This document shows, piece after piece, positions 1,907 through 55,500 of a stretch of 56,805 bases of DNA (within the stretch, counting starts at the first letter, position 1; the number at the start of each line of letters is the position of its first letter). Under the pieces are notes generated by a model. That model was not told the DNA's origin. It ran no database searches and saw only the letters and a list, made by a program, of their open reading frames with translations. Source of the stretch: a virus (Duplodnaviria > Caudoviricetes); the IMG/VR virus record IMGVR_UViG_3300044615_000557, positions 1 to 56,805 of that record. The stretch is one strand, 5' to 3'. The translations under genes were made by a program, and so were the position numbers.

Positions 1907-2223
1907 GCGACATCATCAACCAAGCCATGGGCATTCTGGGCGGCAAGAAGGACAAGGACAAGAAGTCCCTCGCGGAGGCACGCACGCCCGCGCCCGCACG
2001 CACACCCACGCCCCCGCCCGTTCCCGTGCGCCCGCACGCGAGCCAGATCAACGAGATGATTGACACCGCAGAGCGACGGGTCAAGGCGGAACTCTCCCGC
2101 TACGGACTGCTCCATGCCCGCCTGCTTGAGGCACGCGAACTGCTCAAGGGCGGCAGCGACACCATTCTGGTGGAGAACACCATCCGCTTCGCCATGAACG
2201 AGGCGAAGGTCACGATCAAGTAA
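1903..2223 (+). CDS. Hypothetical protein
   Basis: 106 aa, ATGA-coupled to previous ORF. Confidence 0.7.
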   Translation: MSDIINQAMGILGGKKDKDKKSLAEARTPAPARTPTPPPVPVRPHASQINEMIDTAERRVKAELSRYGLLHARLLEARELLKGGSDTILVENTIRFAMNEAKVTIK

Positions 2224-2232
2224 GGAGCCGAC

Positions 2233-2943
2233 ATGGAAGACTTCAAGAGACGCATCATCAACGAGGCCATCAAGCACGGGGCGAAATCATCCCCGTTCCA
2301 TGACATCGGCATCAAGCGGGACAGCATCAACAGTTGGGACTGGGATGAGGCACGCGACGGGTGGGAAGGCAAGCAACCCATCACGGAGAAGAAGACCGTC
2401 GCCGAAGACGAGGACTATGATGGGGACATGGCGATGACTCTCCTCAAGAATGTCGTGGAGAAGGCCAACGAGTTGCTGGGCATGATGAATCCCGAGATGG
2501 AACTGGAGCCATGGGTGCAGAGCAAGATCACCATGGCCGAGGACTACATCACCGTGGTCAGGGACTACATCAAGCACAAGGACCATGCCGAGGGGGTTGT
2601 GGTAGACGGTGATGATATCACCGAGGCACAGGCGGTGTCGGGCAAGTATCGTTTCAACTCCTTCAAGGAAGGCAGCATCAGCGGCTGGAAGGTCAGCATC
2701 CAGAGCAAGGGTGAGGTCGGCTTCATTGAGGAACCCGCCAAGAAGAACACCCGCACATCAATCTCACCCCACAAGTTGTTCCTCTACGGCAAGAAGGAGG
2801 GCGAGCCGGACTTCGTCCTCAGCCTCTGGCCCAGCAAGGAGACCCGCATGGTGGGTGAGAGGGAGATGCGATACGCTCCCCGTCAACTCTTCAACGCGGT
2901 CGCCATGTGGATGGACAAGTACGGCAGCAAGATGGTGAAGTGA
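2233..2943 (+). CDS. Hypothetical modular protein, probable head-internal protein
   Basis: AGGAG RBS; modules separated by IxE linkers (IINE, ITE, ITEA); contains an LEPWVQSKITMAEDY module of a kind seen in T4-like phage proteins. Confidence 0.7.
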   Translation: MEDFKRRIINEAIKHGAKSSPFHDIGIKRDSINSWDWDEARDGWEGKQPITEKKTVAEDEDYDGDMAMTLLKNVVEKANELLGMMNPEMELEPWVQSKITMAEDYITVVRDYIKHKDHAEGVVVDGDDITEAQAVSGKYRFNSFKEGSISGWKVSIQSKGEVGFIEEPAKKNTRTSISPHKLFLYGKKEGEPDFVLSLWPSKETRMVGEREMRYAPRQLFNAVAMWMDKYGSKMVK

Positions 2944-2944
2944 C

Positions 2945-3235
2945 ATGCCCACCCCCAAGGACGCTCTCAACTTTGACCCCGATGACCCCTTCAACGAGGA
3001 CTTCGGGTTTGAGATCGTGGACTCCCCCGATGTGGTCATTGAGGAGAAGAAGGGCGAGATACGGGAGGTCTACTCCCAACGCATGCAGGCGGTTGAGAAG
3101 TTGATCCTGCCCCTGCTCCAGAACCTCCTCAAGAACCCCGAGAAGGAATACATCAAGTGGGGCAACCGGACGCAGGTCATCACGAAGCAGATTGACCGCA
3201 TCACCTCCATCACCCGTAAGCCGCTGGATGCGTAA
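2945..3235 (+). CDS. Conserved T4-like hypothetical protein
   Basis: 96 aa; ILPLLQNLLKNPEKEYIKWGNR motif. Confidence 0.7.
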   Translation: MPTPKDALNFDPDDPFNEDFGFEIVDSPDVVIEEKKGEIREVYSQRMQAVEKLILPLLQNLLKNPEKEYIKWGNRTQVITKQIDRITSITRKPLDA

Positions 3236-6610: not shown

Positions 6611-7068
6611 GAACATTCAAGCAACACATGAACGAGGCCATCGTCACCACGCGCACGGGCACGGGCGTGCGCCCGCTCGGGGGCGTGTACGCGCCCGCGG
6701 GGACACCCATCGCATGGAACGATCTCAAGCGGCTGGAGAGCGTTCTTGACGCGATGTTCAAGCAGGCGGGACTGGACATCGCGTTCACCCGTCACTTCCA
6801 CGAACGCATCAACGGCTCCCGTGGCTACGGCGGCACGATCTCCCTCCCCGAGTTGCAGGATGCCTTCCGGAAGACCTACACCAAGTATGCAGCGAAGATC
6901 CGCAACCACGACACCGACTGGAAGGCCATCATCCACGATGTGAGCAAGACCCTCAACATGCCGTTCGTCCTGAAGTGGGATGACCGCGTCCGTGCCATGA
7001 GCCTCGTCATGGTCACCGCGATGAAGAAGCCGGACTTCAAGTCCCCCGACCCCAAGTTGCCCGTATGA
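6607..7068 (+). CDS. Conserved T4-like hypothetical protein with capsid-targeting-like N-terminus
   Basis: ATG 6607 coupled to previous stop; MRTFKQHMNE; FTRHFHERIN...LNMPFVLKW motif. Confidence 0.7.
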   Translation: MRTFKQHMNEAIVTTRTGTGVRPLGGVYAPAGTPIAWNDLKRLESVLDAMFKQAGLDIAFTRHFHERINGSRGYGGTISLPELQDAFRKTYTKYAAKIRNHDTDWKAIIHDVSKTLNMPFVLKWDDRVRAMSLVMVTAMKKPDFKSPDPKLPV

Positions 7069-8967: not shown

Positions 8968-9309
8968 ATGAACACAGCAATCAACAGCCACCTCAACATC
9001 GCCGAGATCGAAGCCAAGCGTAGCCTCCTCCTGAAAGCCCTGCACCTCTCCATCTGCAAGGTGGTCTTCACCAAGACGGACGGGACGGAGCGTACCATGC
9101 TCTGCACGCTGGACGAGCAGTTCCTCCCCTCCCGCGAGGACTCCGTCGCCCTGACGGGCACGAAGACGGGCAAGCCCCGTCACTCGCCGGATGTCCTGTA
9201 TGTCTGGGATGTGGAGAAGAACGACTGGCGTGCCTTCCGCGTGGACAGGGTCAAGGAATGGAACATTGAACACCAGCGGAACGACGAGAACGACCTGCTG
9301 GGCGACTGA
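8968..9309 (+). CDS. WYL_2/SH3 beta-barrel fold protein
   Basis: VVFTKTDGTERTMLCTL ... VWDVEKNDWRAFRVD motif. Confidence 0.7.
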   Translation: MNTAINSHLNIAEIEAKRSLLLKALHLSICKVVFTKTDGTERTMLCTLDEQFLPSREDSVALTGTKTGKPRHSPDVLYVWDVEKNDWRAFRVDRVKEWNIEHQRNDENDLLGD

Positions 9310-9319
9310 CCCCCGCCAT

Positions 9320-9392
9320 ATCCCCGTAACTCAGAGGATAGAGTAGCGGTTTTCTAAACCGCCTGTCGCAGGTTCGAGTCCTGCCGGGGATG
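9320..9392 (+). tRNA. tRNA-Arg(UCU)
   Basis: Acceptor ATCCCCG/CGGGGAT; anticodon arm GCGGT-TT TCT AA-ACCGC; T-loop TTCGAGT. Confidence 0.92.
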
Positions 9393-9394
9393 CT

Positions 9395-9465
9395 GCCCCT
9401 ATAGTATAACGGCATTACACTTGATTTGTAATCATGAGAACTCAGTTCGATTCTGAGTAGGGGCT
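9395..9465 (+). tRNA. tRNA-Thr(UGU)
   Basis: Acceptor GCCCCTA/TAGGGGC; anticodon loop TT TGT AA; T arm CTCAG-TTCGATT-CTGAG. Confidence 0.85.
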
Positions 9466-9468
9466 TTC

Positions 9469-9722
9469 GCTCTCGTAACTCAGTTGGTAGAGTAGCGGAC
9501 TTTCAATGGAACTCTTGCACAGGAATGTGCAAGCGAATCTCCCCAAAATCGGCGAACCCTTCGCTGGCAACGCCGAGCCAAGCCCGTAAGGGAAGGTGTA
9601 GAGACTTGACGAGGAGCATCCAGACCGGATGAAGGCAAAGTCCAGACCACGAACCGAAAGGGCGGCGAAAGCCGAAGTGGTAGGTAATCCGTAAGTCGTG
9701 GGTTCAAGTCCCACCGAGAGCA
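9469..9722 (+). tRNA. tRNA-Lys(UUU), split by a group I intron (exons 9469-9503 and 9685-9722)
   Basis: Joining the exons gives GCGGA-CT TTT AA-TCCGT; acceptor GCTCTCG/CGAGAGC; A73. Confidence 0.85.
9504..9684 (+). ncRNA. Group I self-splicing intron (181 nt, no ORF)
   Basis: P1 with U.G at the 5' splice site, P2 hairpin CTTGCAC/GTGCAAG, P/Q (AAATCGGCGAA / CAACGCCGAG), R/S (GTAGAGACTT / AAGGCAAAGTCC), GAAA-capped P9, terminal G. Confidence 0.85.
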
Positions 9723-9726
9723 TTGC

Positions 9727-9799
9727 GGTCCCATCGTCTAGCAGGCTAGGACACCTCCCTTTCACGGAGACAACAGGGGTTCAAATCCCCTTGGGATCA
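9727..9799 (+). tRNA. tRNA-Glu(UUC)
   Basis: Acceptor GGTCCCA/TGGGATC; anticodon loop CT TTC AC; T arm AGGGG-TTCAAAT-CCCCT. Confidence 0.9.
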
Positions 9800-9806
9800 C
9801 TAAATA
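9800..9806 (+). promoter_or_regulatory. Late promoter CTAAATA
   Basis: 5 nt before ATG 9812. Confidence 0.6.
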
Positions 9807-11596: not shown

Positions 11597-12217
11597 ATGA
11601 ACACCCCCAAGGGAACCAAGCCACCTCCGAACAAGGATGTATTCGTGGTGTCCGACACTCACTTCGGACATGCGAATATCTGCAAGTTCAATTCCAAGGG
11701 GGTGAAACTCCGTCCATGGGACCGGATAGAGGATCATGACGAGGCTCTGGTCGCCAACTGGAACGCCGTGGTCAAGCCCACCGACAAGGTGTATCACCTC
11801 GGCGATGTCGCCATCGCGAAGAAGTCTCTTGACATCCTCTCGCGGCTGAACGGCGACAAGATCCTCATCCGTGGGAACCATGACATCTTTGACCTGAAGG
11901 ACTACGCCAAGCACTTCCGCGACATCCGTGCGTTCCATGTGCTGAACGGGTGCGTCTTCTCGCACGCGCCCATCCATGCATCATGTCTGGAGAAGTTCGG
12001 ATGTAATGTCCACGGGCACACGCACGCGAAGCATATCCAACGGGTCGCCGATATCGGTGGTCTGGAGAACGACCCGTCGTACCTGAATGTCTGCGTGGAG
12101 CACACCGGCTTCGCTCCCATCCCTCTTGACGAGGTGTTCGCTCGGGTGCTGAAGCAGGGAGGTAGGGTGGGGTTCCTTGACAAGCGACGGGAAGAGGTGT
12201 ATGATTGGGCTGGTTGA
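11597..12217 (+). CDS. Calcineurin-like metallophosphoesterase
   Basis: SDTHFGH, HLGD, GNHD, HGHTH motifs. Confidence 0.9.
   Translation: MNTPKGTKPPPNKDVFVVSDTHFGHANICKFNSKGVKLRPWDRIEDHDEALVANWNAVVKPTDKVYHLGDVAIAKKSLDILSRLNGDKILIRGNHDIFDLKDYAKHFRDIRAFHVLNGCVFSHAPIHASCLEKFGCNVHGHTHAKHIQRVADIGGLENDPSYLNVCVEHTGFAPIPLDEVFARVLKQGGRVGFLDKRREEVYDWAG
12177..12205 (+). promoter_or_regulatory. sigma70-type promoter for tRNA-Gly/Asn
   Basis: TTGACA-17-TATGAT. Confidence 0.65.
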
Positions 12218-19676: not shown

Positions 19677-20004
19677 TGCCATCATGATGGTTGAGTCCGG
19701 TGGTGACCCCAACGCCGTGGGCGACGGGGGCAAGGCCATCGGTGCCTTCCAGATCCACCGTGGCTACTGGAAGGATGCCGTCGCGTTTGACAAGACGCTC
19801 GGCGGAACCTACAATGACTGCTTTGACCCTGCGTACGCGCGCAGGGTCGTGGTCGCGTACATGCGCAGGTACGCGCCCGCGGGGGCGACCATGGAGGACA
19901 TGGCCCGTCTTCACAACGGGGGCTGTAACATCCTCAAGCGTAAGGGCAGCAAGGCGTGGGACGCGACCACCGCCTACTGGAACAAGGTAAGGAAGCATCT
20001 ATGA
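19579..20004 (+). CDS. Secreted lysozyme-like/transglycosylase protein (destabilase-like)
   Basis: Signal peptide; AIMMVESGG, AIGAFQIHRGYWKDA, ARLHNGG, YWNKV motifs. Confidence 0.75.
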   Translation: MRMLRLLPVLVCLSLTSPTLPASNTKVSDRFLDAIMMVESGGDPNAVGDGGKAIGAFQIHRGYWKDAVAFDKTLGGTYNDCFDPAYARRVVVAYMRRYAPAGATMEDMARLHNGGCNILKRKGSKAWDATTAYWNKVRKHL

Positions 20005-23532: not shown

Positions 23533-24315
23533 ATGACAGCACAAAAGTTCGTCTCGTTCCTCGCAGAGGAGAAGAAGGTTCAGTACCCGCATGTACACCT
23601 CTGCTTTGATGACCACTCGGTCTCCAACTGGCATGCCGCGAGAGACCTGTTCGTGGAACACAAGGCCAAAGCCGTGTTCTATGTGGACTCGTTCCACCTG
23701 CTCACCGACAAGGACTTGGACATGCTCTCTGACCTTCGTTCGGACGGGCATGTGATCGGATGCCACGGCAAGACCCATCGCGATGCCCTGTCGTATGCCC
23801 GCATGTACGATGTGGACCGCTACATTGAGGACGAGGTTCTCCCTGCGATGGAGGACATGGCGGGGGCTGGCTTCAAGCCGACCCACTTTGCCTTCCCACT
23901 CTCACGATTTGACGAGGAACTCTATCGTCGGGTCTGCCCGATGTTCTGCTATGTCCGACCCGGCAACGAGAGCCACTACTACCAAGGCGACCGCATGTAC
24001 TTCAAGCCGGATCGGCTCAAGGGTTCGGAAGACACCCGTGAGCACCGCATCCGCAGGGGCAAGTTGCAGAGAGTGCTTGCGGGTCTTGCGGACACCGCCA
24101 AGGCCATGAAGGGCATCAGCCTCGTCATGCACGACATCCGCCCGCACGCGGACGCGCCCGCGCACGCGGGTACGCACGCACGCCTGTATGTGGTGCGTGA
24201 GGAGTTGAGCGAGATCCTAAAGACAATCAAATCAACGGGCTTCCAGTACCAGACCTTTGAGGATGTCTGCGAATATGGAGTGGATCCGTTTGACAAGCCC
24301 GAAGCATTGCCCTGA
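23533..24315 (+). CDS. Polysaccharide deacetylase (CE4/NodB-like)
   Basis: LCFDD, IGCHGKTH, FAFP, LVMHD motifs. Confidence 0.8.
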   Translation: MTAQKFVSFLAEEKKVQYPHVHLCFDDHSVSNWHAARDLFVEHKAKAVFYVDSFHLLTDKDLDMLSDLRSDGHVIGCHGKTHRDALSYARMYDVDRYIEDEVLPAMEDMAGAGFKPTHFAFPLSRFDEELYRRVCPMFCYVRPGNESHYYQGDRMYFKPDRLKGSEDTREHRIRRGKLQRVLAGLADTAKAMKGISLVMHDIRPHADAPAHAGTHARLYVVREELSEILKTIKSTGFQYQTFEDVCEYGVDPFDKPEALP

Positions 24316-26721: not shown

Positions 26722-27247
26722 TGCCCTGAGAGCCTCTATTGACCGGCAGATCGGAACGAGGACGGTTCAGGTGCTGCACCTCGCCGACAATCGCGAGTTG
26801 ACCATCGGACAGAAGAGGAACATGCTCCTCACCCAGTCGGGCGGGGAGTATGTCGCCTTCGTGGACGATGACGATGCCGTCAGCGTGGACTACATTGAGA
26901 AGGTGATGAACGGTCTCACCAAGAACCCTGACTGCACCTCTCTCACCGGCTCCATCACCTTCTCGGACGGCTACAGCCGCCCCTTCATCCACTCGCTTCG
27001 CTACGACCACTGGATTGACGACCATGAGGGCAAGGTCTACTACCGACCCCCGAATCACCTGAACGCCATCAGGCGGTCTCTGGCGGTTCAGGTGGGCTTC
27101 CCGTCCATCAACAGCGGCGAGGACCGCGTGTTCTCCATGGGCGTGCGCCCGCTCCTGCGGCGAGAGGAGTGGATTGAGGGCATCATCTACATGTACCAGT
27201 GCAAGAAGACCTTTGAAGAGACCCACAACCATCAGGTGGCGAGATGA
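26651..27247 (+). CDS. Glycosyltransferase family 2
   Basis: LSVLIPS, IGQKRN.L, YVAFVDDDD, GED motifs. Confidence 0.85.
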   Translation: MPWKPSHKLSVLIPSLHERKQSLDALRASIDRQIGTRTVQVLHLADNRELTIGQKRNMLLTQSGGEYVAFVDDDDAVSVDYIEKVMNGLTKNPDCTSLTGSITFSDGYSRPFIHSLRYDHWIDDHEGKVYYRPPNHLNAIRRSLAVQVGFPSINSGEDRVFSMGVRPLLRREEWIEGIIYMYQCKKTFEETHNHQVAR

Positions 27248-37566: not shown

Positions 37567-39009
37567 ATGACCGACAAGATTGAACTCGTCATCCTGCGCA
37601 GCCTGCTGCATCGGCAAGGCTACACCCGTCGCGTACTCCCGTTCCTCAAGGACGAGTACTTCCACGACAACTGCGAGAAGCGTCTCTTCAAGACCATCTC
37701 GGAGTTCATCGTCAAGTACGCGAACGCTCCCACCCGCGAGGCTCTGAACATCATCCTGAGCCAGCAGGAGGGTCTGTCGCAGGGGGAGTTTGACGAGTGC
37801 CTGCGTCTGGTGGACGGGCTGAACCCCGAGGAGGAGCCGGACGAGCAATGGCTGGTTGACCAGACCGAGAAGTTCTGCAAGGACAAGGCGGTCTACAACG
37901 CCCTGATGGAGTCCATTGAGTTGCTGGACGAGAAGCGGGCGAAGGGTCGGTCCAAGAACGCCATCCCCGAGATCCTCACCTCCGCCCTCAGCGTGTCCTT
38001 TGACCAGCACATCGGTCACGACTTCATTGAGGATGCCGAGCAGCGGTACGAGTTCTACCACCGCATTGAGAAGAAGACCTCGTTTGACCTTGACTACTTC
38101 AACCGCATCACCAACGGCGGTGTCCCCGACAAGACCCTGAATGTGGTCCTCGCGGGCACGGGAGTGGGCAAGTCCCTGTTCATGTGCCACCATGCCGCCA
38201 ACTGCCTGACCCAGAACAAGAATGTCCTCTACATCACCTGCGAGATGGCGGAGGAACGGATCGCGGAACGCATTGATGCCAATCTGATGGATGTCACCCT
38301 TGATGACCTGAAGCAGTTGCCTATCGACATCTACGGCAAGAAACTCGCCAAGTTGACCAAGAACATCACCGGCAAGTTGATCATCAAGGAGTACCCGACC
38401 GCCTCCGCCAGCGTGAACCACTTCCGCCACCTGATGGACGAGTTGCGGCTCAAGAAGAACTTCAAGCCCGATGTGGTGTTCATTGACTACCTGAACATCT
38501 GTGCCTCGTCCCGTTTCAAGCCGGGAGCCAATGTGAACTCGTACACCTACATCAAGGCGATTGCGGAGGAGTTGCGAGGCATGGCGGTGGAGATGGGGGT
38601 TCCCATCTTCACGGCGACCCAGACGAACCGCTCCGGCTTCGGGAACAGCGATGTGGAACTGACCGACACCTCCGAATCCTTCGGGTTGCCAGCCACAGCG
38701 GACTTCATGTTCGCCATCATCGCCACCGAGCAACTGGACGAGTTGGGGCAGGTCATGGTCAAGCAACTCAAGAACCGCTACAACGACACCGCCACCCACC
38801 GCAAGTTCGTCATCGGCATTGACCGGTCCAAGATGAAACTCTTTGATGTGGAGGAGAACATGCAGCAACTGGTGGCGGCACACAACCCGCTGGCAGAGGA
38901 CGAGGACGAGGAGAACCCCCCCGCACGCAGGGGCGCGTACGCACGCCCGCGGGCAGGCGGGCACGCGCGGGCGCACGAAGCCGACCGAAAATTCACCGAC
39001 TGGACTTGA
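37567..39009 (+). CDS. gp41: Replicative DnaB-like helicase
   Basis: AGTGVGKS, EMAEERIAERIDAN, IDYLNI, TSESFGLPATAD, KQLKNRY motifs. Confidence 0.96.
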   Translation: MTDKIELVILRSLLHRQGYTRRVLPFLKDEYFHDNCEKRLFKTISEFIVKYANAPTREALNIILSQQEGLSQGEFDECLRLVDGLNPEEEPDEQWLVDQTEKFCKDKAVYNALMESIELLDEKRAKGRSKNAIPEILTSALSVSFDQHIGHDFIEDAEQRYEFYHRIEKKTSFDLDYFNRITNGGVPDKTLNVVLAGTGVGKSLFMCHHAANCLTQNKNVLYITCEMAEERIAERIDANLMDVTLDDLKQLPIDIYGKKLAKLTKNITGKLIIKEYPTASASVNHFRHLMDELRLKKNFKPDVVFIDYLNICASSRFKPGANVNSYTYIKAIAEELRGMAVEMGVPIFTATQTNRSGFGNSDVELTDTSESFGLPATADFMFAIIATEQLDELGQVMVKQLKNRYNDTATHRKFVIGIDRSKMKLFDVEENMQQLVAAHNPLAEDEDEENPPARRGAYARPRAGGHARAHEADRKFTDWT

Positions 39010-41252: not shown

Positions 41253-44200
41253 TTGAAGGTTTCGCACGCCATCAGGAAACGCTCTCCGAGGCCAAGAAGG
41301 AGAATGTGGTCTTTGCTTTCGGACGCTTGAACCCCCCGACCACCGGACACGGCGTGCTGATAGACAAGATCATGTCCGAGGCCAGCAAGAGGAACGCGGA
41401 CCACTATGTCTTCGTCAGCAAGTCGCAGGATGCCAAGAAGAACCCCCTGACGCACGCCCAGAAGGTGATGTACCTCAAGCAGTTCTTTCCCAAGGGCAAG
41501 TTCCCCCTGAACCAAGCCAGAGACCCCTATGATGCCGTCCTGTGGCTCTGTGCCAAGGGCTACAAGAACATCACCATGGTCTGCGGCAGCGACCGAGTTG
41601 ACCAATTCAAGGGCATCGCGGGATACAAGGGCAAGGTCGCCCAGAAGGATCCCAAGCAGCGGACCTACTCGTTTGAGACCTTCAATGTGGTCGTGGCGGG
41701 CGAGGCACGCGACGACGAGGCACAGGGGGTGGCTGGCATGTCCGCCTCCAAGATGCGTGCTGCGGCGTTTGAGAGCGACTACAATGCGTTCAAGAAGGGC
41801 GTTCCCGGCGGCAACGAGGCTCTCAAGAAGGCACTCTACAAGGATGTCCGGAAGGGTATGGGTCTCTCCGAGCAATACATTCCCGAGGCCAACGGCAAGG
41901 ACAGCCAGAAGGTCACCATCCTCGCACTCACCTCGTCCGAAAAGGACTTGAGCGACAGCGTGGAGAAGATGGAGAATATCTGCAAGAAGCGTGGCATTGA
42001 GTTCTATGCGGTCAAGACCAGCAAGGCTCAGGTTCAGATTGATAATGTCGTATCTAAGAAGATCGTCATCAAGAACTACGACGGCGAGGGCAAGGACGCG
42101 ACCATCGTCCCCAGCGACACCGTCTGCATCGTGCGCGGGGGCGTGATGAACACCCAGACCGGCGTGGCGGTGCTGGACATCCTACAGAACAACGGCGTGT
42201 TCATGGTCAACGAGAAGGGTGGCATGGAACTCTGTGCCAACAAGTTGCAGACCGCCATCGCCCTGAAGAAGCACGGGTTGCCCCACCCCCGCACCGCGTT
42301 CGTGGTGAACGAGGCGAACATTGAGACAGCGGTCAAGGAGATTGGCGGGAAGTTCCCCGTCATCGCCAAGACTCTCACCGGTGCCGAGGGCATCGGCGTA
42401 TCCAAGATTGAGAGCATGGAGAGCCTGAAGTCCGTCCTCCAGACCCTGTGGAAGTTTGGGGCTGAGGTCATCATTCAGGAGTTCCTGCCCGACTTCAAGA
42501 ACGATGTCCGGAGCATCGTCCTCAACGGCAAGATCTTCGCCTGCGCGAAGCGAGACAAGGCACCCAAGGACTTCCGCACGAACATCGCACGCGGATCCAA
42601 GGGCGGCTCGCACCAGTTGAGCGAAGAGGAAGTGAAACTGGTTGAGCAGGCGGCAAGGGTCAGCAAGTGCTACTATGTCGGCATTGACCATGTCATCAAC
42701 GACGGAAAGCCTTACATCATTGAGATGAACGCCAGCCCCGGCAGCGGCAACATCTACTACCGCTACTACGACGAGGGCAAAGGCAAGGACAATGTGAAGG
42801 GCGAGGAGTTGATTGAGGACTTCCTTGACTACATCCTCAACAAGGCGCACTGGAAACTCTTCTCCAACCTTGCCGTCCGCGAGCCGGTCAAGATTGACGG
42901 CGTTGAATACACCGCCAAGGTGGACACCGGCAACAGCGGCTACAACATGATCCATGGCGACAAGATCAAGGACAACGGCGACCACACCGTGTCCTTCACG
43001 CTGCCGAACGGCAAGCGTATCACGAAGAAGATCGTCAGCCGCATCACGGTCAAGAGCGGCATCGGCGAGAAGACCCGCATGGTCGTGCTGATGGACATTG
43101 AGTTCCACGGAAAGAAGTTCACCAACATCAAGTTCAGCATCGGCGACCGCAGCCACATGAGCACGAAGGTTCTGCTCGGTCTACAGTTCCTCAGCAAGAC
43201 GGGGTTCACCGTGGACCCCGCCGAAGCCATCTATCCGCAGCCCGACAGCAACGCCAAGAGGCGCGGTGACGAGGAGGAGGAAGAGGAACTCAACGAGGAC
43301 ATGCCCATCGGGACGGCGGTCAAGGCACTCAAGGATGTGGCGATCAGCCCATTTGCGGTCACCAAGATCGCGACCCTAGCCAAGAAGCGAAAGGGCATGT
43401 CGGAAACGGAGTTCAAGCGTGAGGCGGATAAGGTCAAGAACGAGATCCTCATGAATGTCTACAAGACATCCGGATCCGCATTGACGCTCGGTCTGTTCAT
43501 GACACAGAGCAAGGTCGGAAAGTTGCTGGCGAAACTGCTTGACAAGTTGATCCTCAAGGTCATGGTTCATGATACCTCCATTGACCCCAGCGTCATCCTG
43601 AAGACCATCACCAGCACCCTGCTGTCCGCGGGAAGCGTTCTCGGGATGGGTGATGAGTTGGAAGGCGACCCCCTGATTGAGGCGGACCTTGAGTACAAGG
43701 GCAAAGAGATGAAGGGTCACCTCGACGGATTGCTGGCCAAAATCAAGAGCAAGCATGGAACCACGAATGTCACCTATAGCCAAGCGATGAAGACCGTCGG
43801 CTCAACTGGCGCAGCCAGACTCGCGGCAAGAGGCAAGATAAAGAGAGACGATGGGGAGAAGGAGAAAGGCGAACTGGGGAAGAGCGAGTCCATTGAAGAA
43901 GCAGATGTGACCAAGGGCAAGAAGTTCAAGACCAAGACCGGCAAGACCAAGGAGTCGCCGAAGCACAAGGCGACTGGACTGCCCAAGAAATATGTGTCCG
44001 GTCTCACCGGCAAGGATGCGGGTCTTCGTAAGAAGCGTCTCGCCGCCCGTGCCAAACTGCCGGACAGCGACCCCAAGGCATGGGAGTTCGTGAACCCCAA
44101 AGAGAAGGGCATCAAGACCAAGCCGTCCAAGTACAACAGCCTGTATGCGAAGTTGCAGAAACAAGGCAAGTTGAAGGCCATCAAGAGCCACTACGAGCAT

Positions 44201-47660: not shown

Positions 47661-48727
47661 TGGCTGTACTCAAGAAATACGATCGTCAGTATCACGACCT
47701 GTACAAGTACAATCCGATGGTTTCTGCCGAACCGAAGTACGACGGCATTCCATTCGCAATCAACCCCGACTGCGAAGCCATCAAGGCAGGTCTGGACTTC
47801 AGCGGCTGTGTCGTTCGCAACCAGCGGTTCAACAACCGCTCATCTCCCAACAACTTTCCGGGCGTTGACTGGTACGACATCAACATGTGGAACAACGGCT
47901 ACTTCGCCGCTGTCCTCATCACCCCAAGACACGCACTGGTTTGTGAACATTACTACAAGACGGTGCCGTCACAGATTCATACGATGAAATGGCTCGGTCG
48001 CAGCGGAATTTTCCACTCGCGTGCCGTTGATAAGACCAAGCCGATGGGCAGCGACCTGCGACTGGTTGAGTTCAAGGAAGATTTCCCCTCGGATGTCAAG
48101 GTCTACAACAGGATCGCCGACATCCGATACATCCCCATCAACAGGGAGTTGTGGATACAGGACGCACAAAATCGCATCTACCGAGTTCTTCATGCGAGAA
48201 CCACCACCAACACGGGCAAACTTGACGGCGACCCGACGGGATGGTCTTCCAAGACATACCTTGATGGTCCGGAGGGATACAACCAAGGGTTCTACCAGTA
48301 CGGAAACTCCGCTGTAAATCCAAGCGTATTTCCAGGAGACAGCGGTTCTCCCACATTTGTGCTTGACGAAGGTGAGACAATTCTGGTCGGTCTCGCTTTC
48401 GGCGGATCGTTCATCAGCCCCAAGATGCTTGACTCCCTAAAATACGAAACCGGCAACAGATATCCGCTGGAACTCGTAAAGGTGTCCGCGAAGAAGTCCG
48501 ATGTCAATCAGGACGGCAGCGTTGATGCAGCCGATCTCGGTGAACTGTCTGGAGCATGGGGAACATCCAACCCCAAGTATGATCTCAACGGCGATGGCGT
48601 GGTTGACGCGATGGACATGACCATTCTACAGGCGGATTGGGGCTACTACGGATTGACGCACTCGGTCTACACACCGCCAGTCGCACCGCCTTTGCCGATC
48701 ACCCCACCGAAGGATGTCAAGCGATGA
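47660..48727 (+). CDS. Trypsin-like serine protease with C-terminal dockerin/EF-hand repeats
   Basis: AVLITPRHALVCEH, GDSGSP; DVNQDGSVDAADLG..GAWG and DLNGDGVVDAMD..ADWG. Confidence 0.75.
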   Translation: MAVLKKYDRQYHDLYKYNPMVSAEPKYDGIPFAINPDCEAIKAGLDFSGCVVRNQRFNNRSSPNNFPGVDWYDINMWNNGYFAAVLITPRHALVCEHYYKTVPSQIHTMKWLGRSGIFHSRAVDKTKPMGSDLRLVEFKEDFPSDVKVYNRIADIRYIPINRELWIQDAQNRIYRVLHARTTTNTGKLDGDPTGWSSKTYLDGPEGYNQGFYQYGNSAVNPSVFPGDSGSPTFVLDEGETILVGLAFGGSFISPKMLDSLKYETGNRYPLELVKVSAKKSDVNQDGSVDAADLGELSGAWGTSNPKYDLNGDGVVDAMDMTILQADWGYYGLTHSVYTPPVAPPLPITPPKDVKR

Positions 48728-49368
48728 TAAGAGAGTACTTCAAGTGGAAGTTCAATGAACTCATGACCACCGATTGGGTGGAGATGCCCGCTTACAAGTT
48801 GGGCATCATCAGCGAGCAAGGCAAGATCCTGCGCACGCGAGACACCCTCCAGACCGAGGAGGAGATCCGTGCGTATCCAAGCATGTTCTACACCCTCTGC
48901 TGGAACATAAGAAATCTGATGGAGCAGGGAGAGAAGAAGTCGGTTATCGGACCATTGGTCAACACGATCTTTGCCATGCACCAGTTCTGTCATGAGGTGG
49001 GCAGAGAGGACATTGACGAACTGGTCACCGAGGAGGTTGAGCGTCGTGGGCTTTCCTCCCGATTCGTCTGCGAGGAGCCGGAGTACAAGTCCATTGAGCC
49101 GGGCGACTACATCATCCGAGGTCGCAAGGTTCGCATAGAGACCCCGCTGTTCCCCTGTGAGGAGTACTTCGGGCATCCCGTCTACCGCATTGACCGGATG
49201 GTCTTTGTGCTTGAGGATGTCAAGGAGGACGCTCCAGTCAACGCCGTCGGTCACGGGAACATCGCAGGTGTGTCGCCGGGACAGGAGCCGCCGGGCAAGC
49301 GTGGTCTGTATTTCTACCGAAACAAGAAGAAGACCAAGGAACTCAAGCGGCGCACGGGCAACCTGTGA
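48724..49368 (+). CDS. Conserved T4-like hypothetical protein
   Basis: W..MPAYKLGII...G.IL and EDAPVNAVG.GNIAG motifs; ATGA-coupled. Confidence 0.7.
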   Translation: MIREYFKWKFNELMTTDWVEMPAYKLGIISEQGKILRTRDTLQTEEEIRAYPSMFYTLCWNIRNLMEQGEKKSVIGPLVNTIFAMHQFCHEVGREDIDELVTEEVERRGLSSRFVCEEPEYKSIEPGDYIIRGRKVRIETPLFPCEEYFGHPVYRIDRMVFVLEDVKEDAPVNAVGHGNIAGVSPGQEPPGKRGLYFYRNKKKTKELKRRTGNL

Positions 49369-49487
49369 TGGTCGCTATGTATACGCGAATCGTCGCCGTT
49401 TTCAGGGAAATTCCGAGAATTTTAAAGTCGTGTTTGTGGATGTGATCCGAACTTATAAAACATGACTCGGTTTCATAACTTGAACGC

Positions 49488-49516
49488 TTGACTCGGCTCC
49501 GAACCGGCTGTATACT
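49488..49516 (+). promoter_or_regulatory. sigma70-type promoter of primase
   Basis: TTGACT-17-TATACT. Confidence 0.7.
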
Positions 49517-49527
49517 CCCTCCAAACC

Positions 49528-50583
49528 ATGTCCGGATACATTGACACCAAGTTCATCAACATGCTGTCTCCACGCCTTGAGAGGTTCAAGTGGAAGAAGC
49601 AGGGTCTTGCCGTCTGCCGTTGTCCCGTCTGCGGCGACAGCGAGAAGGTCAAGAGCAAGACTCGGTTTTACATCTACGAGCGGGGTGGCAATCACTTCTG
49701 CAAGTGCCACAACTGCGGGTTCAGTTCCTTGTTCGGGACGCTACTGCGGAAGATGGACGAGGCACTCTACCGCCAGTATCGGATGGAGACCCTCAAGGAA
49801 GGCTCCTCCGTCCTCACGCCCACGCACGCGCGTACGCACGCACCCGCCCCCGCACGCACGCGGGAGAAGCCCAAGGACGAACTCCTGACACTGCTGCCAT
49901 CGCTGGACACGCTGCCGAAGGACCACCCTGCCGTCCGTTGGGCGGAGTCCAGAAGGTTGCCTGTCGCAGCCATGTCGCTGCTCTACTACTCGGACAACTA
50001 CGGCGAGTGGGCAACGAGAGTTGACCCCGATGTGAAGGCGGGAGATGATCCACGAATCGTCATACCCATCATCAACAAGGACGGCAAACTGACCGGCTCA
50101 CAAGGACGGATTCTGCCGAAACTGGCCGTCTCAGAAGGACAGAAGCCGAACCGGTCTGTCATCCGCTACCTGACCATCAAGGCAGATAAGGACGGACCGA
50201 AGCAGTGGTATGGCATGGACCGATGTGACCCCAAGCAGCCGGTGTTTGTGGTGGAAGGCCCGCTGGACAGCCTGTTCCTTCCCAACTGCGTTGCGATGGT
50301 TGGCCTGTCGGATGCCTTGAGCATCCCACCCGAACTGAAGGACTCCAAACTCATCTATGCCCTTGACAATGAGCCTCGCAACGCCGAGGTGGTGGAGTCA
50401 ATGGAGGAACTCCTTGACGCGGGACATCATGTGTGCGTGTGGTCGGACAAGATGCGTGGCATGAAGGACATCAACGACATGGTGCTGTCCGGCATGTCTG
50501 CCGCGACCATCGCAAGGGAGATAGAAAGAAACTCGCATGTCGGACTTTCCGGCATGGTCGCTCTCAAGAGATGGTCTAAATAG
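49528..50583 (+). CDS. gp61: DNA primase
   Basis: RCPVCGDS..K.R, CHNCG Zn finger; VEGPLDS, DNEPRN, KDIND Toprim motifs. Confidence 0.95.
   Translation: MSGYIDTKFINMLSPRLERFKWKKQGLAVCRCPVCGDSEKVKSKTRFYIYERGGNHFCKCHNCGFSSLFGTLLRKMDEALYRQYRMETLKEGSSVLTPTHARTHAPAPARTREKPKDELLTLLPSLDTLPKDHPAVRWAESRRLPVAAMSLLYYSDNYGEWATRVDPDVKAGDDPRIVIPIINKDGKLTGSQGRILPKLAVSEGQKPNRSVIRYLTIKADKDGPKQWYGMDRCDPKQPVFVVEGPLDSLFLPNCVAMVGLSDALSIPPELKDSKLIYALDNEPRNAEVVESMEELLDAGHHVCVWSDKMRGMKDINDMVLSGMSAATIAREIERNSHVGLSGMVALKRWSK
50576..50582 (+). promoter_or_regulatory. Late promoter CTAAATA
   Basis: Upstream of GGAGG RBS and ATG 50599. Confidence 0.6.
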
Positions 50584-50598
50584 GTTCGGAGGTTCATC

Positions 50599-50850
50599 AT
50601 GGACAACGAAGAAGATAATGTAGAAGTGGAAGTTGAGACACCCGAGCAAGAGACGCAAGAGCAGCCGTCACTCGCATCGGAAGTGATTGACATGGTCATG
50701 GACGGCAACGCGAGCGATGCGAAGGATGCCATCTACGGCTTGCTGTACCAGAAGGTCGGCGAGCGGATTGACTCGCTGAAGGCGGATGCCCGCGTCAACA
50801 AGTGGTCAGCCGAAGAGACACCGAGCGAGTCGGAACCAGAGCAGAACTGA
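50599..50850 (+). CDS. Small acidic late protein (possible prohead-core-like)
   Basis: 83 aa, Glu-rich, late promoter. Confidence 0.6.
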   Translation: MDNEEDNVEVEVETPEQETQEQPSLASEVIDMVMDGNASDAKDAIYGLLYQKVGERIDSLKADARVNKWSAEETPSESEPEQN

Positions 50851-50874
50851 CATTCAGAAAGTGAAGTCTTCATC

Positions 50875-51768
50875 ATGATCAGTATTGAGACGCATCGCAA
50901 TCTCTATCGGGCAGAGACCAACGAGGACATCAAGGCTTCCCTTGATTATGCCAAGTCCATTCCTGTTCCCGAAAGCAAAGAACCCGTAACCTTCCATTTC
51001 TACTGGAGGGTTCCGAAAGAATTCGGCAGGAAACAAGTTCTCCCGATCAAGTCGGCAATCGTCACTCAAGACTTGTCTAGAACCAAGATCATCCTGTGGT
51101 CAAACATTGACTTGAGCAGGAACAAGTTTGTTCAGCCCCTGCTGCCATACATCCAGACCAAAATCTGGAACCCTGTCAATGAATCCGTCGGGACTCCACT
51201 GGAAGGGTCAAGCATCTTCAGGGGAACGATTGATGACCCGAGGTGTTACTTAGGCGGAGACCTTTTCCGTCTCCTATGCCTCTACAAGTATGGGGGAGTC
51301 TACATTGACATGGACATGGTCGTGCTGCGGGACTTCTCTCCCATCCTGTCTCACGAATTCATGTATCAATGGGGAACCTCCGGCTGGAGCCAATCCGAAC
51401 CGTTCATTTTTGCGAACGGAGCGGCGATGAGACTGAAGAGCCAAAGCAAGTTGGCTCGCGATTTGCTGGAGGAAGTTCAGAGAACCAGCCCACAGCCGAA
51501 CAGCACATCATGGGGCAAGGATCTTTACATGAAAGTACGCGAGAGGAACAAGGACTACCTGATTCTTCCTTGTACATGGTTCAACACGGAGTGGTGCTCT
51601 GCGGTAGGTGATTGGCATCCCTTCATCAAATCAGATCAGAGCAATCACCTGTATGATGGTGCCTTCACATGGCACTGGCACAACCGATGGGATCATCCGA
51701 TTGAGGATGGGTGTAAGTTTCAAATACTGGAGAAGATGGTAGAGGACAAGTTCCTCGCCATGAAGTGA
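50875..51768 (+). CDS. DXD glycosyltransferase (GT32-like)
   Basis: FHFYW, DLFRLL.LYKYGGVYIDMD, WHWHN motifs. Confidence 0.85.
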   Translation: MISIETHRNLYRAETNEDIKASLDYAKSIPVPESKEPVTFHFYWRVPKEFGRKQVLPIKSAIVTQDLSRTKIILWSNIDLSRNKFVQPLLPYIQTKIWNPVNESVGTPLEGSSIFRGTIDDPRCYLGGDLFRLLCLYKYGGVYIDMDMVVLRDFSPILSHEFMYQWGTSGWSQSEPFIFANGAAMRLKSQSKLARDLLEEVQRTSPQPNSTSWGKDLYMKVRERNKDYLILPCTWFNTEWCSAVGDWHPFIKSDQSNHLYDGAFTWHWHNRWDHPIEDGCKFQILEKMVEDKFLAMK

Positions 51769-51775
51769 GGTCATC

Positions 51776-52573
51776 ATGATTACACAAGTCAAGGATGTCC
51801 CCGTGCTTGACGCGGGGCATGTTCAGTATGTCACACACATGGGCGATGACCTGATGGTGGTCAACGCAGCCCGTGTGTCTTTCGCCAAGGAATCGGAATT
51901 TGACTACGACATCAAGGAAGAGATTGATGTTGATGGGCGATCCGTAACCGAGCACAAACACAATTTCAGGTTGAAGGAAAGGGACAAGAAACTCATTTCT
52001 TATCTCGCGAAGCACAACCACTGGACTCCGTTCGCCCATCCCCAGATCACGCTTCGCATCAAGGCACCGATCTCCATCCGCACGCAACTCTTCAAGCACA
52101 AGGTCGGCTTCGTGGAGAACGAGGTGAGCCGTCGTTATGTGAAGGACGAGCCGGAGTATTACATGCCGAACTGGAGATCGGCACCGACCGACGGGGCGAA
52201 GCAGGGCAGTTCGGGCTTCATGGACAAGACCGACCATCCCGTGAACAGGATGCTGAGGGATGCCGACTATCGGCAGGTCTGTAACATGGCCATCATCCGA
52301 TACAACACCATGATTGATGAGGGTGTCGCCCCCGAGCAGGCACGCTTCATCCTGCCGCAGGGAATGTATACCGAGTGGTGGTGGACGGGAAGCCTCTCCG
52401 CCTACGCCCGCGTCTACAGGCAGCGTTCGGACCCGCATGCCCAGTGGGAAGTGCGTCAGTATGCCGATGCGATTTCCGCCATCATTGAGCCGCTTTTTCC
52501 GGTGTCGTGGAAAGTTCTCTGTGGTTCCGAGATTGAGGTCAGCACTCCTGAGCCTGCCCTAAATAAGTCGTAA
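51776..52573 (+). CDS. thyX: FAD-dependent thymidylate synthase
   Basis: VNAARVSF, HWTPF.H, KHK.GF.ENEVSRRY, PEQAR.ILP, HAQWE motifs. Confidence 0.95.
   Translation: MITQVKDVPVLDAGHVQYVTHMGDDLMVVNAARVSFAKESEFDYDIKEEIDVDGRSVTEHKHNFRLKERDKKLISYLAKHNHWTPFAHPQITLRIKAPISIRTQLFKHKVGFVENEVSRRYVKDEPEYYMPNWRSAPTDGAKQGSSGFMDKTDHPVNRMLRDADYRQVCNMAIIRYNTMIDEGVAPEQARFILPQGMYTEWWWTGSLSAYARVYRQRSDPHAQWEVRQYADAISAIIEPLFPVSWKVLCGSEIEVSTPEPALNKS
52559..52565 (+). promoter_or_regulatory. Late promoter CTAAATA
   Basis: Upstream of the collagen-like gene. Confidence 0.55.
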
Positions 52574-52597
52574 TCCACCCTCCCCCGTGGCTATACG

Positions 52598-55500
52598 ATG
52601 GCACATAGGTTTAACGAGTTCATCAATGCCCCCGATCCCAATGTTGAGTTCGCCCGCCTGAGCGAGGGTGTTCCCCATGGGACAAATATCATTCTTGTCC
52701 GACCCCTCATGGGACATGAGCCGGGCGATGTCTTCACATGCGCTCCCGCGAGCGCGTGCGCGGGCGCGAAGTGCTACACCTACAGGGGCATCGGGGAAGC
52801 ATACCTTCTTGACCCGAACGGCGAGCCGATCGTACTCAAGGGCGGACCGAACATCCTTGACGAGTCGTTCGTTCTTGAGAGCGATAGACCGAAACCCGAA
52901 CCCGTGGTTCAACGCAACGAGGTCATGCGACAGCCGGAACCCAAGCCCATCGTGGAAGCCCGTGTGACTCAGGGTCCAAGGGGAGAGAGGGGCGAGGACG
53001 GCATCCCCGGCATCCGTGGTCCCAAGGGTCCGAAGGGTGACAAGGGAGACGCAGGAGAGCGTGGACTACAGGGACCGCAGGGTGAACGGGGAGAGCAGGG
53101 ACCGCAGGGAGAGAAGGGTGATCGTGGACTCCAAGGACCGCCGGGAATACGCGGGGAAAGGGGCGAGCGTGGAGAGAAAGGCGAAGCCGGAGAGAAGGGG
53201 GAAAAGGGAGAGGCGGGACCACAGGGCATCCAAGGCGAGCGGGGACTTCAAGGACTCGCAGGGGAAAAGGGAGAGAAGGGTGAGAAAGGAGATTCCGGTC
53301 CACAGGGATCGCGGGGTGAAGCGGGTGCCCGAGGAGAAAGAGGAGAGAAGGGCGACAAGGGAGATGCCGGTGAAAGGGGAGAAGCCGGTCCCGCGGGACC
53401 ACAAGGGTCCGTTGGACCTGCGGGCAATGTGGGTCCGCAGGGCAAGGCAGGTCCGCGAGGAGCAAAGGGCGAGAAGGGCGAAAGAGGATCAGCGGGTCCG
53501 CAAGGAGAGCAGGGATCGGTAGGACCGGCTGGACCCGAAGGACCGCAGGGACCGAAGGGTGAGACCGGCGACAGCGGCATCGTCTCCGCCCAGTATCCCC
53601 TGAAGTATGACAAGGACAAAAAGCGTCTTTCCATTGACCTATCAAAGATAAAGCCGACAGGTGCGGCTGGCGGTCCCATTCTCTATGACGGCGGCGGCGG
53701 TCTCGGCGAGGCGTTCAAGTTCGTCTCGGTGTCGGGTCAATCGGGACTGACGGCGGTCCAGTATGACAAGGAGACGCTGACCTTCGTCGCGGGTTCCAAT
53801 GTCACTCTCACGACAAATCCCGACGCAAACTCAATCACCATCGCGAGTTCCGGTGGTGGTGGAGGAGGAGGACCGGGGTATTGGGGTTCATTCTGGTCAA
53901 CCGAGGACCAGATTGCCGCGACCGCCAACTACGAATACCTGATCACATACAACAACACGGATCCGGACTCGTCCGGTGTCGGCATCACCAACGGAAGCCA
54001 AGTCAAGTTCACGAACGCGGGCGTATACAGCATCATCTACTCCGTCCAGTTTGTCAATACCAGCAATCAGATTACAGATGCTAACATTTGGCTGAAGAAA
54101 AACGGAACCAATTTTCCAGACAGTGACAGCAAATGGAGCGTCGTATCAAGACATGGTAGTATTAATGGACATGCCATCGGAAGCGTCAACTATGTCCTGA
54201 AACTGAACGCAGGTGACTACCTTGAGTTGGCATGGCAAACTACAGACCCAAGCCTTTCGATTGAAGCACTTCCGGCAGAAGGTGTGGCACCGGCAATCCC
54301 CTCAATCATCCTGACGGCAACGCAGGTCGCAAACACTCTTGTGGGTGCGACGGGCAACACGGGACCGACAGGTGCTGCCGGTCCCACGGGCGCAAGAGGA
54401 ACGACCGGCAACGGAGTGACTGGATTTGCCGTCGTTGACAACTACCTCCGATACTGGTACATGGGTCCGACCGGAGCGACACTCGGCGAGTACCAGAACG
54501 CGGGGTATGTTGGTGGTGGTGGAGGCGGTGGAGGGATTGGACCCACAGGACCGACAGGACCGCAAGGCAACACGGGACCGACGGGACCACAAGGTCCGCA
54601 GGGAGACCCCGGTGTCGGCATTCAAGGAAACACGGGCAACACAGGACCAACAGGACCGCAGGGACCGATTGGTCCTACGGGTAACACCGGAGATACGGGA
54701 CCGCAAGGCAACACAGGATCAACTGGTAACACCGGAGATACGGGACCACAAGGACCGACAGGTAACACGGGACCGACAGGACCGCAGGGCAACACCGGAC
54801 CGACGGGACCGATGGGTTCCTTCACCGGCGACTATGTCTCGTCCATCAACGGCTTGACGGGAGCGATAACAGGAGTCGTTCGCTTCACCTCGTCCCTGAC
54901 GGCACCGACAGGGGTGAGCGTAGGACACAAGTGGTTTGACGAGGCATCCGGCACCGAGTTCACCTACATCTATGATGGCGACACATATCAGTGGGTGGAC
55001 ATCTCAGGTGGTGGAGGGAACGGAGGAACACAATCCACGGATCCGCTCTATCTGCTTGACCCCACGAAAGTCCAGTGGATTCATAGCATCTTCCCCGCAG
55101 GCACCGCAAACGGAATTCTTCCCTTCGCAGTAAGCACCAGCGGAACATATGTTGGCGGGAACATCGGAAACAACTTCTATAACACCGATGCCGCGAGTAT
55201 CAAGAGATACGGACAGGCGAGAATAACACAAACAGCAGCAAACTCCGTGACTGGAGCATCATATTTTCTGGGAACTCCGATGGCGAACATAAATCTGATG
55301 CTCGGAGTGACAGGAACTACATGTTCATTCCTCACGGGAACAAGAATGTCACACCAATCCACCGGATCGGCTCCATACCTTCTCAGAGCCGGTTTCATGG
55401 ACAATACATCCGGAGGAGGAGTGGTAGATGGTGCTTGGTTTGAATATACCCACACGGTCAACGGAGGAAGATGGTACTGCTATGCCAACAGAGGCAATGA

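Follow-up and report, generated by a model that had tools for sequence, protein, structure and literature searches.

Dispersed GC-dinucleotide tracts in a T4-like phage genome probably combine conserved protein motifs with repeat-built linkers

Short GC-rich tracts of similar appearance recur in unrelated genes of the viral record IMGVR_UViG_3300044615_000557 of IMG/VR, which raises the question whether they represent one DNA element overprinted on coding sequence or several things that look alike. The window analyzed here is the whole record of 56,805 bases. It is part of the genome of a T4-like phage, and its genes, which lie almost all on the + strand, include those encoding a family-B DNA polymerase, a UvsX-like recombinase, a gp41/DnaB-like helicase, a gp61-like primase and a collagen-like fibre. 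A first-pass annotation, made from the letters and the open reading frames, had listed seven strong and three weak tracts and proposed that DNA rather than protein is the unit under selection. We consider it fairly probable that the list instead joins conserved motifs that resemble the tract units with four linkers or tails in which short GC-rich units multiplied through duplication or slippage under GC pressure.

The sequence at the seven strong tracts reads as claimed. From position 1979, C occupies every second base for 21 dinucleotides, and a second run of this kind, starting at 49813 in tract T6, extends over 25 dinucleotides with one mismatch. The odd peptides quoted earlier are right, and the tracts do lie in unrelated genes of the + strand. 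A blind scan for at least 10 CpG per 48 nucleotides (nt) recovered exactly the seven strong tracts, T1 to T7, plus one window at 53686-53736; the earlier reader had therefore picked the CpG-densest places of the genome. The GC content is 50-62% along the window except for an island at about 28-37.5 kb, and the tracts are indeed absent from this low-GC glycan island because its GC content is only 39-51%. The features are listed below, with residues given as amino acids (aa); T4 denotes a tract throughout, except in the phrase T4-like phage.

T1, 1978..2040, + strand: Ala/Arg/Thr/Pro linker, aa 26-46 of a 106-aa protein, peptide ARTPAPARTPTPPPVPVRPHA
T2, 6648..6702, + strand: variable N-terminal segment, aa 20-38 of a 159-aa protein (phrog_23027)
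T3, 19830..19887, + strand: within the SLT/destabilase-like lysozyme domain, aa 107-126 of 164
T4, 24138..24192, + strand: His-rich motif HD(I/V)RP..H.GTHA, aa 200-220 of 260 of a polysaccharide-deacetylase-like protein (Pfam PF01522)
T5, 38921..38977, + strand: Arg/Ala/Gly/His stretch, aa 452-470 of 480, in the C-terminal tail of the gp41/DnaB-like helicase
T6, 49815..49864, + strand: aa 96-112 of 351, linker of the gp61-like primase between the zinc-binding and catalytic parts
T7, 52735..52768, + strand: conserved N-terminal segment, aa 46-57, of the collagen-like tail fibre
Weak tract, 12011..12028, + strand: His-Gly-His-Thr-His-Ala in a calcineurin-like phosphoesterase, peptide NVHGHTHAKH
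Weak tract, 27120..27160, + strand: conserved residues of a family-2 glycosyltransferase
Weak tract, 42110..42150, + strand: conserved residues of a 1286-aa multidomain protein
Eighth CpG-dense window, 53686-53736, absent from the earlier list: Gly-rich stretch of the fibre gene (GGC GGC GGC GGT type)

Orthologues were taken from G001, a 147.6-kb viral contig of 42.5% GC that is syntenic with the window over 1.3-56.8 kb (loci L162-L169), and from lake-metagenome contigs with polymerases up to 67% identical to that of the window; a search of a phage collection for DNA near-identical to the window gave no match. The matched genes of G001 and the window encode proteins of 27-83% identity, about 45-83% for most core genes. 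Alignment of ten orthologues revealed that residues H200, D201, G213, T214 and A216 of the T4 motif are invariant and H215 nearly so. Two relatives, L082 and L083, write this motif with AT-rich codons, with a GC fraction at third codon positions (GC3) of 0.17 and 2 CpG, compared to 0.89 and 14 CpG in the window. At T4 the peptide is thus conserved with other codons, an outcome that the first-pass annotation had itself named as speaking against selection on DNA. In relatives of intermediate GC (loci L084 13247, L085 8447, L087 13186 and L098 2588, several of them close kin), the GC3 of the motif is 0.61-0.89 versus 0.39-0.58 for the whole gene, over a small sample of 18 codons each.

Further conserved segments underlie several other tracts. 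The T7 segment aligns to FTYAPATACVGGKTYTYKGIGEAF in L001-L003, and the Pfam Collagen match lies further on in the fibre protein. T3 sits in the part of the lysozyme that is covered by PF05497 and PF01464 (aa 47-160); its peptide is DPAYARRVVVAYMRRYAPAGAT in the window and DPDYARRVVCAYLHRYGSNNSD in G001, with the first two-thirds conserved (DPDYARRVVCAYLHRY) and a variable loop at the YAPAGA end. The weak tract near 27140 encodes SMGVRPLLRREEW in the window and SMGIRPFLKTEEW in G001, in a protein that is 73% identical overall, whereas that near 42130 encodes SDTVCIVRGGVMNT in the window and SDTVAVVRGGVMNS in G001. The third weak tract, 12011-12028, lies inside a Pfam Metallophos match (aa 15-153, PHROG 547) and encodes HGHTHA, which we take to be the metal-binding His motif of the phosphoesterase family; this protein has no orthologue in G001. 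The three weak tracts are ordinary coding sequence. With T4, T7, most of T3 and the tracts at 27140 and 42130 encoding residues conserved in orthologues, the tracts do not form one DNA element, and on the evidence of these alignments the conserved ones are ordinary protein segments that read as GCxC units under GC-rich codon choice.

By contrast, the linker tracts T1, T2, T5 and T6 lie in fast-evolving Ala/Pro/Arg/Thr/His segments that differ in every relative compared (by tblastn alignments for T1, T2 and T5). T1 contains an 18-nt unit present twice and a 6-nt unit CGCCCG; Tandem Repeats Finder (TRF) reports positions 1978-2013 with a period of 18, 2.0 copies and 88% match. In G001, the only orthologue compared for T1, a longer and unrelated Thr/Pro/Gln/His linker stands between conserved ends; a search of viral contigs for further relatives of this 106-aa protein gave none, and neither a Pfam nor a PHROG family matched it. 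T2 includes a 6-nt CACGGG repeat (TRF period 6, 3.2 copies) and in G001 corresponds to a segment 5 aa longer and only partly alike, between conserved flanks. T5 (TRF period 8) is flanked by an acidic run and by a terminal Trp motif that is conserved; the relatives carry unrelated Gly/Lys/Asn-rich helicase tails of similar length. T6 is a (CACG)n-like repeat (TRF period 4, 10.2 copies, 75% match, in addition to period 16) with an alternating purine/pyrimidine run of 23 nt, and it occupies variable linker columns in a 12-sequence primase alignment in which the closest relatives are 4 aa shorter. Overall, imperfect tandem repeats of period 4, 6, 8, 16 or 18 were flagged in six of the seven strong tracts (raw TRF flags, score 30), and T3 had no flag at this score. 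We describe T1, T2, T5 and T6 as probably disordered, lineage-specific segments.

Whether the helicase and primase tracts are lineage-specific insertions had been raised as a question. They are not clean insertions, as the orthologues have segments of similar or greater length at all four linkers, with G001 differing from the window by +15 residues at T1, +5 at T2, -4 at T5 and -4 at T6. Many lake metagenomes contain this phage (at least 24 runs). Strain variation was followed by comparing contigs of four metagenome runs over 38000-53500, from which rare variants drop out. In the X3 and X14 contigs, T5 continues after 38971 with 17 other letters, after which the sequence resumes at 38953. Read in this way, the form would be longer by 36 bases, a number divisible by three; we regard it as one supporting case rather than proof, since joints in metagenome contigs can mislead. 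The long form occurs in two of the four runs compared, alongside the unchanged one. Over T6 and T7 the contigs listed for these runs are free of differences, which says little about polymorphism given the loss of rare variants.

The tracts were compared with chance expectation under three nulls, applied to a gene set from a simple longest-ORF (open reading frame) call on the + strand: codon permutation, within-gene synonymous shuffle, and a context-preserving shuffle in which third bases were swapped only between codons with the same residue, first two bases and next two bases. Windows of 40 nt with at least 80% GC are not in excess, six being observed versus 7.07 under codon permutation and 10.47 under within-gene synonymous shuffle, nor are 30-nt windows graded by purine/pyrimidine alternation (7 versus means of 3.85 and 5.20). 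The CpG windows at threshold 10 number eight, compared to 8.24 under codon permutation, and 209 of 300 within-gene synonymous shuffles reach this count; the context-preserving null expects 3.26, an excess that about equals the number of linker tracts. Runs with C at every second base (NC runs) gave a mixed result. The run of 21 was reached by none of 200 codon permutations, the largest permuted run being 11, whereas within-gene synonymous shuffles had a mean longest run of 14.0 and a largest of 21, with 3.72 runs of at least 8 versus 4 observed. Since synonymous shuffles keep most of the C periodicity, the peptides explain most, though not all, of that pattern.

The extremes behave differently from these bulk measures. 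At threshold 12 the four observed CpG windows were reached by 3 of 300 within-gene and 0 of 300 context-preserving shuffles, and seven alternating purine/pyrimidine runs of at least 14 nt were observed versus about 2 expected, a number reached in 1, 1 and 0 of 200 shuffles under the three nulls. The excess over chance hence depends on the measure used, and the question raised by the first-pass annotation, whether codon-preserving shuffles give such tracts equally often, has a divided answer: they do for CpG windows at threshold 10 under the within-gene shuffle, and they do not for threshold-12 windows and long alternating runs.

Analysis of short words revealed a strong avoidance of 4-bp palindromes in the background of the genome. 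The observed over Markov-expected counts are 0/150 for ACGT, 0/121 for AGCT, 23/271 for TCGA, 43/207 for GCGC and 53/228 for GGCC, which leaves GCGC at 0.21 of expectation genome-wide. Among 6-mers, CTCGAG, GTCGAC, ATCGAT, CCCGGG, GCCGGC, CTGCAG, GTGCAC and ACGCGT are among those absent, and RGCGCY, the only class of GCGC site to be missing altogether, is found 0 times versus about 37 expected, tracts included. Synonymous codons bring the avoidance about: in front of GA the count is 2 for ATC and 93 for ATT, although ATC has a share of 0.88 elsewhere. Its by-products are visible among over-represented 8-mers, where TTGA words are frequent because TCGA is avoided, and AGGAACTC because GAA before CTC avoids GAGCTC, which contains AGCT. 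The latter occurs 13 times versus 1.4 expected (4606, 5847, 8544, 12787, 18442, 19193, 23915, 24701, 43284, 44805, 46815, 49337 and 50405), in one codon phase in 12 of 13 cases, reading (K/E)-E-L; as such a by-product of AGCT avoidance, it was rejected as a regulatory motif.

Palindrome counts in eight relatives (G001, L082, L084, L087, L089, L092, L119 and L138) showed that each avoids its own set, such as CCGG in G001 (0/250), CGCG in L084 (0/40), GATC in L119 (0/85) and GGCC in L092 (0/32). ACGT and AGCT are at 0 in most relatives, and the depletion of GCGC and TCGA is specific to the lineage of the window. Surviving TCGA sites are clustered: of 14 sites outside the island, the stretch at 9.0-12.3 kb (9008-12277) contains eight, nine more are found in the low-GC island (28000-37500), and CTAG sites likewise gather in 9.7-12.8 kb, which suggests that these regions were acquired more recently than the rest.

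We propose that two unlike things would look alike in this genome, as codons for Ala, Arg, Pro, Thr, His and Gly consist of G, C and little A. T4, T7, most of T3 and the weak tracts would be conserved segments that mimic GCxC units through GC-rich codons, and chance would supply about this number of look-alikes (3.26 CpG-dense windows at threshold 10 under the context-preserving null). T1, T2, T5 and T6 would be cryptically simple DNA, composed of imperfect tandem units of period 4, 6, 8, 16 or 18, that may be the product of local duplication, or of slippage during replication, under GC mutation pressure and may have no DNA-level function. Such linker tracts would be tolerated because they are T-poor, with no stop in any frame, and the protein is unconstrained there. 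Palindrome avoidance may add to the resemblance by narrowing the choice of GC-rich words, as barring GGCC and CCGG in a G/C-only stretch leaves mostly alternating words; barred words together with repetition would explain part of the GCGC/CGCG excess and of the likeness among tracts.

GC pressure on unconstrained residues was also considered as the whole explanation and rejected, the genome-wide trend being real but weak: among 784 segments of 12 aa, the less conserved ones have a slightly higher GC at codon positions 1 and 2 (0.51 versus 0.45; Spearman -0.10, p 0.005).

Several observations weigh against the mixture proposed above. The bin of lowest identity has a mean GC of only 0.574, and since most of the poorly conserved segments are not GC-rich, GC pressure alone does not make a tract. 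The GCG codon precedes C in 0.03 of 182 background Ala codons versus about 9 of 18 in the tracts (hand count), and the persistence of these codons in the tracts is left unaccounted for; nor does slippage account for the CpG-rich codons of T3, T4 and T7, which have to be attributed to the chance tail. Of the 21 tract pairs, 13 have a word of at least 10 nt in common, with 16, 14 and 13 nt as the greatest lengths, and this number of pairs was reached in 0 of 500 dinucleotide shuffles and 0 of 500 within-tract codon permutations. The codon phase agrees between the two tracts for eight of these 13 words and differs for five, all five involving T5; because the words cross codon phases, the likeness lies in the DNA and not only in the peptides. 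Covering 0.7% of the sequence, the tracts also account for 19 of the 43 GCGC sites (3 in T2, 4 in T3 and 4 in T7, for example), and 20 of the 43 have a neighbour within 50 nt, whereas random thinning of unavoided sites gives 5.0 on average and reached 20 in none of 300 trials. Compared with expectation without avoidance, the tracts contain 19 versus 9.3 GCGC and 25 versus 8.1 CGCG, both figures being inflated by ascertainment. Finally, G002, a 43-kb contig whose DNA is 95-98% identical to the window over 4429-27247 and 37567-47360 and which covers T2, T3, T4 and T5, has no indel in these four tracts, so that they show no instability at that time scale. Altogether, a DNA-level residue in the tracts is real but not fully explained.

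In the comparison with G002, T2, T4 and T5 are identical and T3 has two substitutions. These tracts are therefore older than that split and stable at that scale; this conservation is not significant, since 27% of random window sets have no more than the 2 changes seen in 225 nt. The tracts contain no GGCC (3.8 expected) and no CCGG (8.0 expected), which rules out that they are young DNA exempt from all avoidance. The possibility that GCGC is irremovable from them without creating another avoided word was dropped as well, because changing GCG to GCC or GCA in T2, the tract checked by eye, makes none.

Further properties bear on a possible DNA signal. Alternating runs that consist mostly of CG and CA steps, and are hence Z-prone by the sequence criterion of about 12 nt or more of CG/CA-rich alternation, were found in T3 (two of 14 nt), T4 and T5 (14 nt each) and T6 (23 nt), so that five of the seven long alternating runs lie inside tracts. 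The two outside the listed tracts, at 44327-44341 (15 nt) and 50428-50441 (14 nt), are of the GTGC/GT and TG type. The recurrence of tracts every few kb does not amount to regular spacing, as the gaps range over 2.9-14.8 kb with a coefficient of variation of 0.55, and 14% of random placements are as even. Folding of eight stretches of 101 nt gave no common RNA structure (z from -2.45 to +1.26); the values for T1 to T7 are -0.46, -0.63, -2.39, -2.45, +1.26, -0.27 and +0.48, only T3 and T4 being near -2.4. Long alternating runs (at least 14 nt) number 2 versus 9.2 expected in G001, the closest large relative, and are absent from L082 and L084; L087 has 3 versus 1.6 expected, one of them at the conserved T4 motif. 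The orthologous linkers of G001 are without the tract pattern, and relatives of 30-51% GC have no such tracts except at the conserved T4 motif. As the pattern is missing in relatives, a clade-wide role in, for example, packaging or nucleoid organization appears unlikely.

Three other explanations were weighed against this mixture. Selection could act on the protein for basic, Arg/His/Ala/Pro-rich flexible linkers and tails, which on the helicase and primase, for example, might contact DNA, the DNA pattern being their shadow. This would fit the survival of most C periodicity in synonymous shuffles, the same codon phase of 8 of the 13 long shared words, the presence of Thr/Pro/His/Ala in the T1 linker of G001 as well (TPQTHTAAPTHRQT), and the helicase tail of G001, which is also basic and Gly-rich (GGGGYGYKKGKK) and whose Lys-type residues are swapped for Arg-type ones in the window, as expected in a GC-richer genome. 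We nevertheless consider it unlikely, as five of the 13 words (those involving T5) lie in different phases and so encode different peptides, the codon choice for a given amino acid differs between tracts and background, the tandem periods 4, 8 and 16 are not multiples of three, and conservation of the linker peptides is lacking even among the closest relatives (58-83% protein identity). The departure in codon choice, as the first-pass annotation had stated, is marked: GCG is used for 22 of 32 Ala versus 0.29 in the background, ACG for 10 of 13 Thr versus 0.21, and CGC for 12 of 19 Arg versus 0.26, while 71% of the residues in tracts, versus 25% in the background, are Ala, Pro, Arg, Thr or His. 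These statistics are partly circular, since the tracts were chosen by their DNA pattern, and this circularity speaks for chance combined with ascertainment, in which the tracts would be the expected extreme tail of GC-rich coding sequence, picked post hoc. The GC-rich windows (6 versus 7.07 and 10.47), the threshold-10 CpG windows (8 versus 8.24, with 209 of 300 synonymous shuffles reaching 8) and the 30-nt alternation windows agree with such an origin. The tail statistics, however, already weaken a chance-only explanation, which we rate as quite improbable: the NC run of 21 (unmatched in 200 codon permutations), the threshold-12 CpG windows (4, reached in 3 of 300 and 0 of 300), the seven long alternating runs (1 of 200 or fewer), the word sharing (0 of 500 under two nulls) and the TRF repeats in six of the seven tracts all exceed it.

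The remaining candidate is that the tracts are selected DNA elements, kept despite the GCGC purge for Z-DNA or protein binding, as a decoy for a GCGC-reading enzyme, or as a recombination/replication signal. Besides the alternating runs (7 versus about 2, five in tracts), this idea gains from the concentration of 19 of 43 GCGC sites in 0.7% of the sequence, with a clustering matched in 0 of 300 thinnings, from the continued absence of GGCC and CCGG, by which the tracts are not simply exempt from avoidance, and from the occurrence of shared words in different codon phases. In addition, all 12 GCGC sites of T2-T5 are common to G002, and 3 + 3 single sites elsewhere have turned over. It is nonetheless very improbable, given the irregular spacing (p 0.14), the shortage of long alternating runs in G001 (2 versus 9.2) and their absence from L082 and L084, the lack of a common RNA structure over the eight stretches (z -2.45 to +1.26), and the explanation of 6 of the 10 listed tracts by conserved peptides or domains. 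Moreover, the tracts occur only where the protein tolerates or needs those residues, the conservation in G002 is matched by 27% of random window sets, and RGCGCY is absent from the tracts too, so the surviving GCGC sites may be poorer targets. The stronger version, in which purposely kept tracts, placed only where the protein tolerates their residues, would concentrate the remaining GCGC and CGCG of a palindrome-purged genome as Z-prone or protein-binding DNA and might serve as a sink or decoy for a GCGC-reading host enzyme or as local recombination/replication signals, seems a shade less probable again. The claim that DNA is the selected unit is supported in part: the pattern of T1, T2, T5 and T6 is best described at the DNA level, by its repeats, cross-frame words and codon choice. 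Selection on that DNA is not supported, the spacing being irregular, the RNA fold not common and G001 without an excess.

Comparison with known systems suggests that the closest kind is a simple-sequence or low-complexity coding region of the slippage type. The abundance and composition of such regions in prokaryotes are related to genomic base bias and duplication in one published account (PMC1524752), and low-complexity regions at protein ends are treated in another (PMC11285758). Similar to these regions, the tracts have a biased composition that follows GC-rich codons, imperfect short tandem units and one putative natural length variant, and T1, T2, T5 and T6 lie in poorly conserved linkers or a tail, whereas T4, T7 and most of T3 are conserved instead. 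They differ in having periods of 4, 8 and 16, the same DNA words across genes and frames, and concentrated GCGC sites. Avoidance of restriction sites, as short palindromes, in phage genomes is described in a further source (PMC6286503); the background of the window resembles it, being purged of short palindromes via synonymous codons while relatives avoid other sets, but the tracts are the very places where GCGC avoidance fails, so that avoidance forms the genomic background rather than the tracts themselves.

Pro/Ala/Thr-rich interdomain linkers occur in bacterial and phage proteins. T1 (ARTPAPARTPTPPPVPVRP) and T6 (TPTHARTHAPAPART) resemble them in joining conserved domains through x-Pro and Ala-Pro alternation, but unlike typical examples they are rich in Arg and His. 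Z-DNA-prone DNA consists of alternating (CG)n and (CA)n tracts; the present tracts share alternating runs of 14-23 nt, mostly of CG/CA steps and in excess over shuffles, whereas these runs are short, interrupted, within coding sequence, not conserved in relatives, and known from sequence alone. Rickettsia palindromic elements (RPE) and yeast mitochondrial GC clusters are short GC-rich mobile insertions inside genes, to which the tracts are similar in being GC-rich, in frame and dispersed in unrelated genes with odd peptides. However, the tracts have neither a clean insertion relative to orthologues nor a consistent hairpin, their copies share at most 16 nt, and three of the strong ones are conserved protein sequence. 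A mobile insertion of the RPE or GC-cluster type was accordingly rejected, with orthologues similar or longer at all four linkers and no common hairpin.

The finding is thus mostly ordinary, with conserved motifs mixed with repeat-built flexible linkers, and serves as a caution that in GC-rich phage genomes motifs of His, Ala, Thr, Arg and Pro together with such linkers can mimic a dispersed DNA element; comparison with low-GC orthologues separates the two quickly. The unusually complete avoidance of 4-bp palindromes in this lake phage lineage, which dictates codon choice, is a useful record of host restriction pressure, and the concentration of GCGC survivors in a few simple-sequence tracts raises the matter of mutation supply versus selection against restriction sites in repeats. 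Were a function of the tracts demonstrated, this would be a rare instance of a DNA signal overlaid on linkers of replication proteins.

Some additional features of the window were observed. The 1286-aa protein (41249-45109) that contains the weak tract near 42130 combines a cytidylyltransferase-like part, a RimK-type ATP-grasp, a putative zinc protease and a terminal DUF3140/DUF6321, and its first 664 residues are 78% identical in G001. Despite its 95-98% identity to the window, G002 does not share the low-GC glycan island (27247-37567); at this position it has about 8.8 kb between the glycosyltransferase and the helicase, without a blastn match to the island, and it carries about 1.6 kb extra at window 10453-10456.

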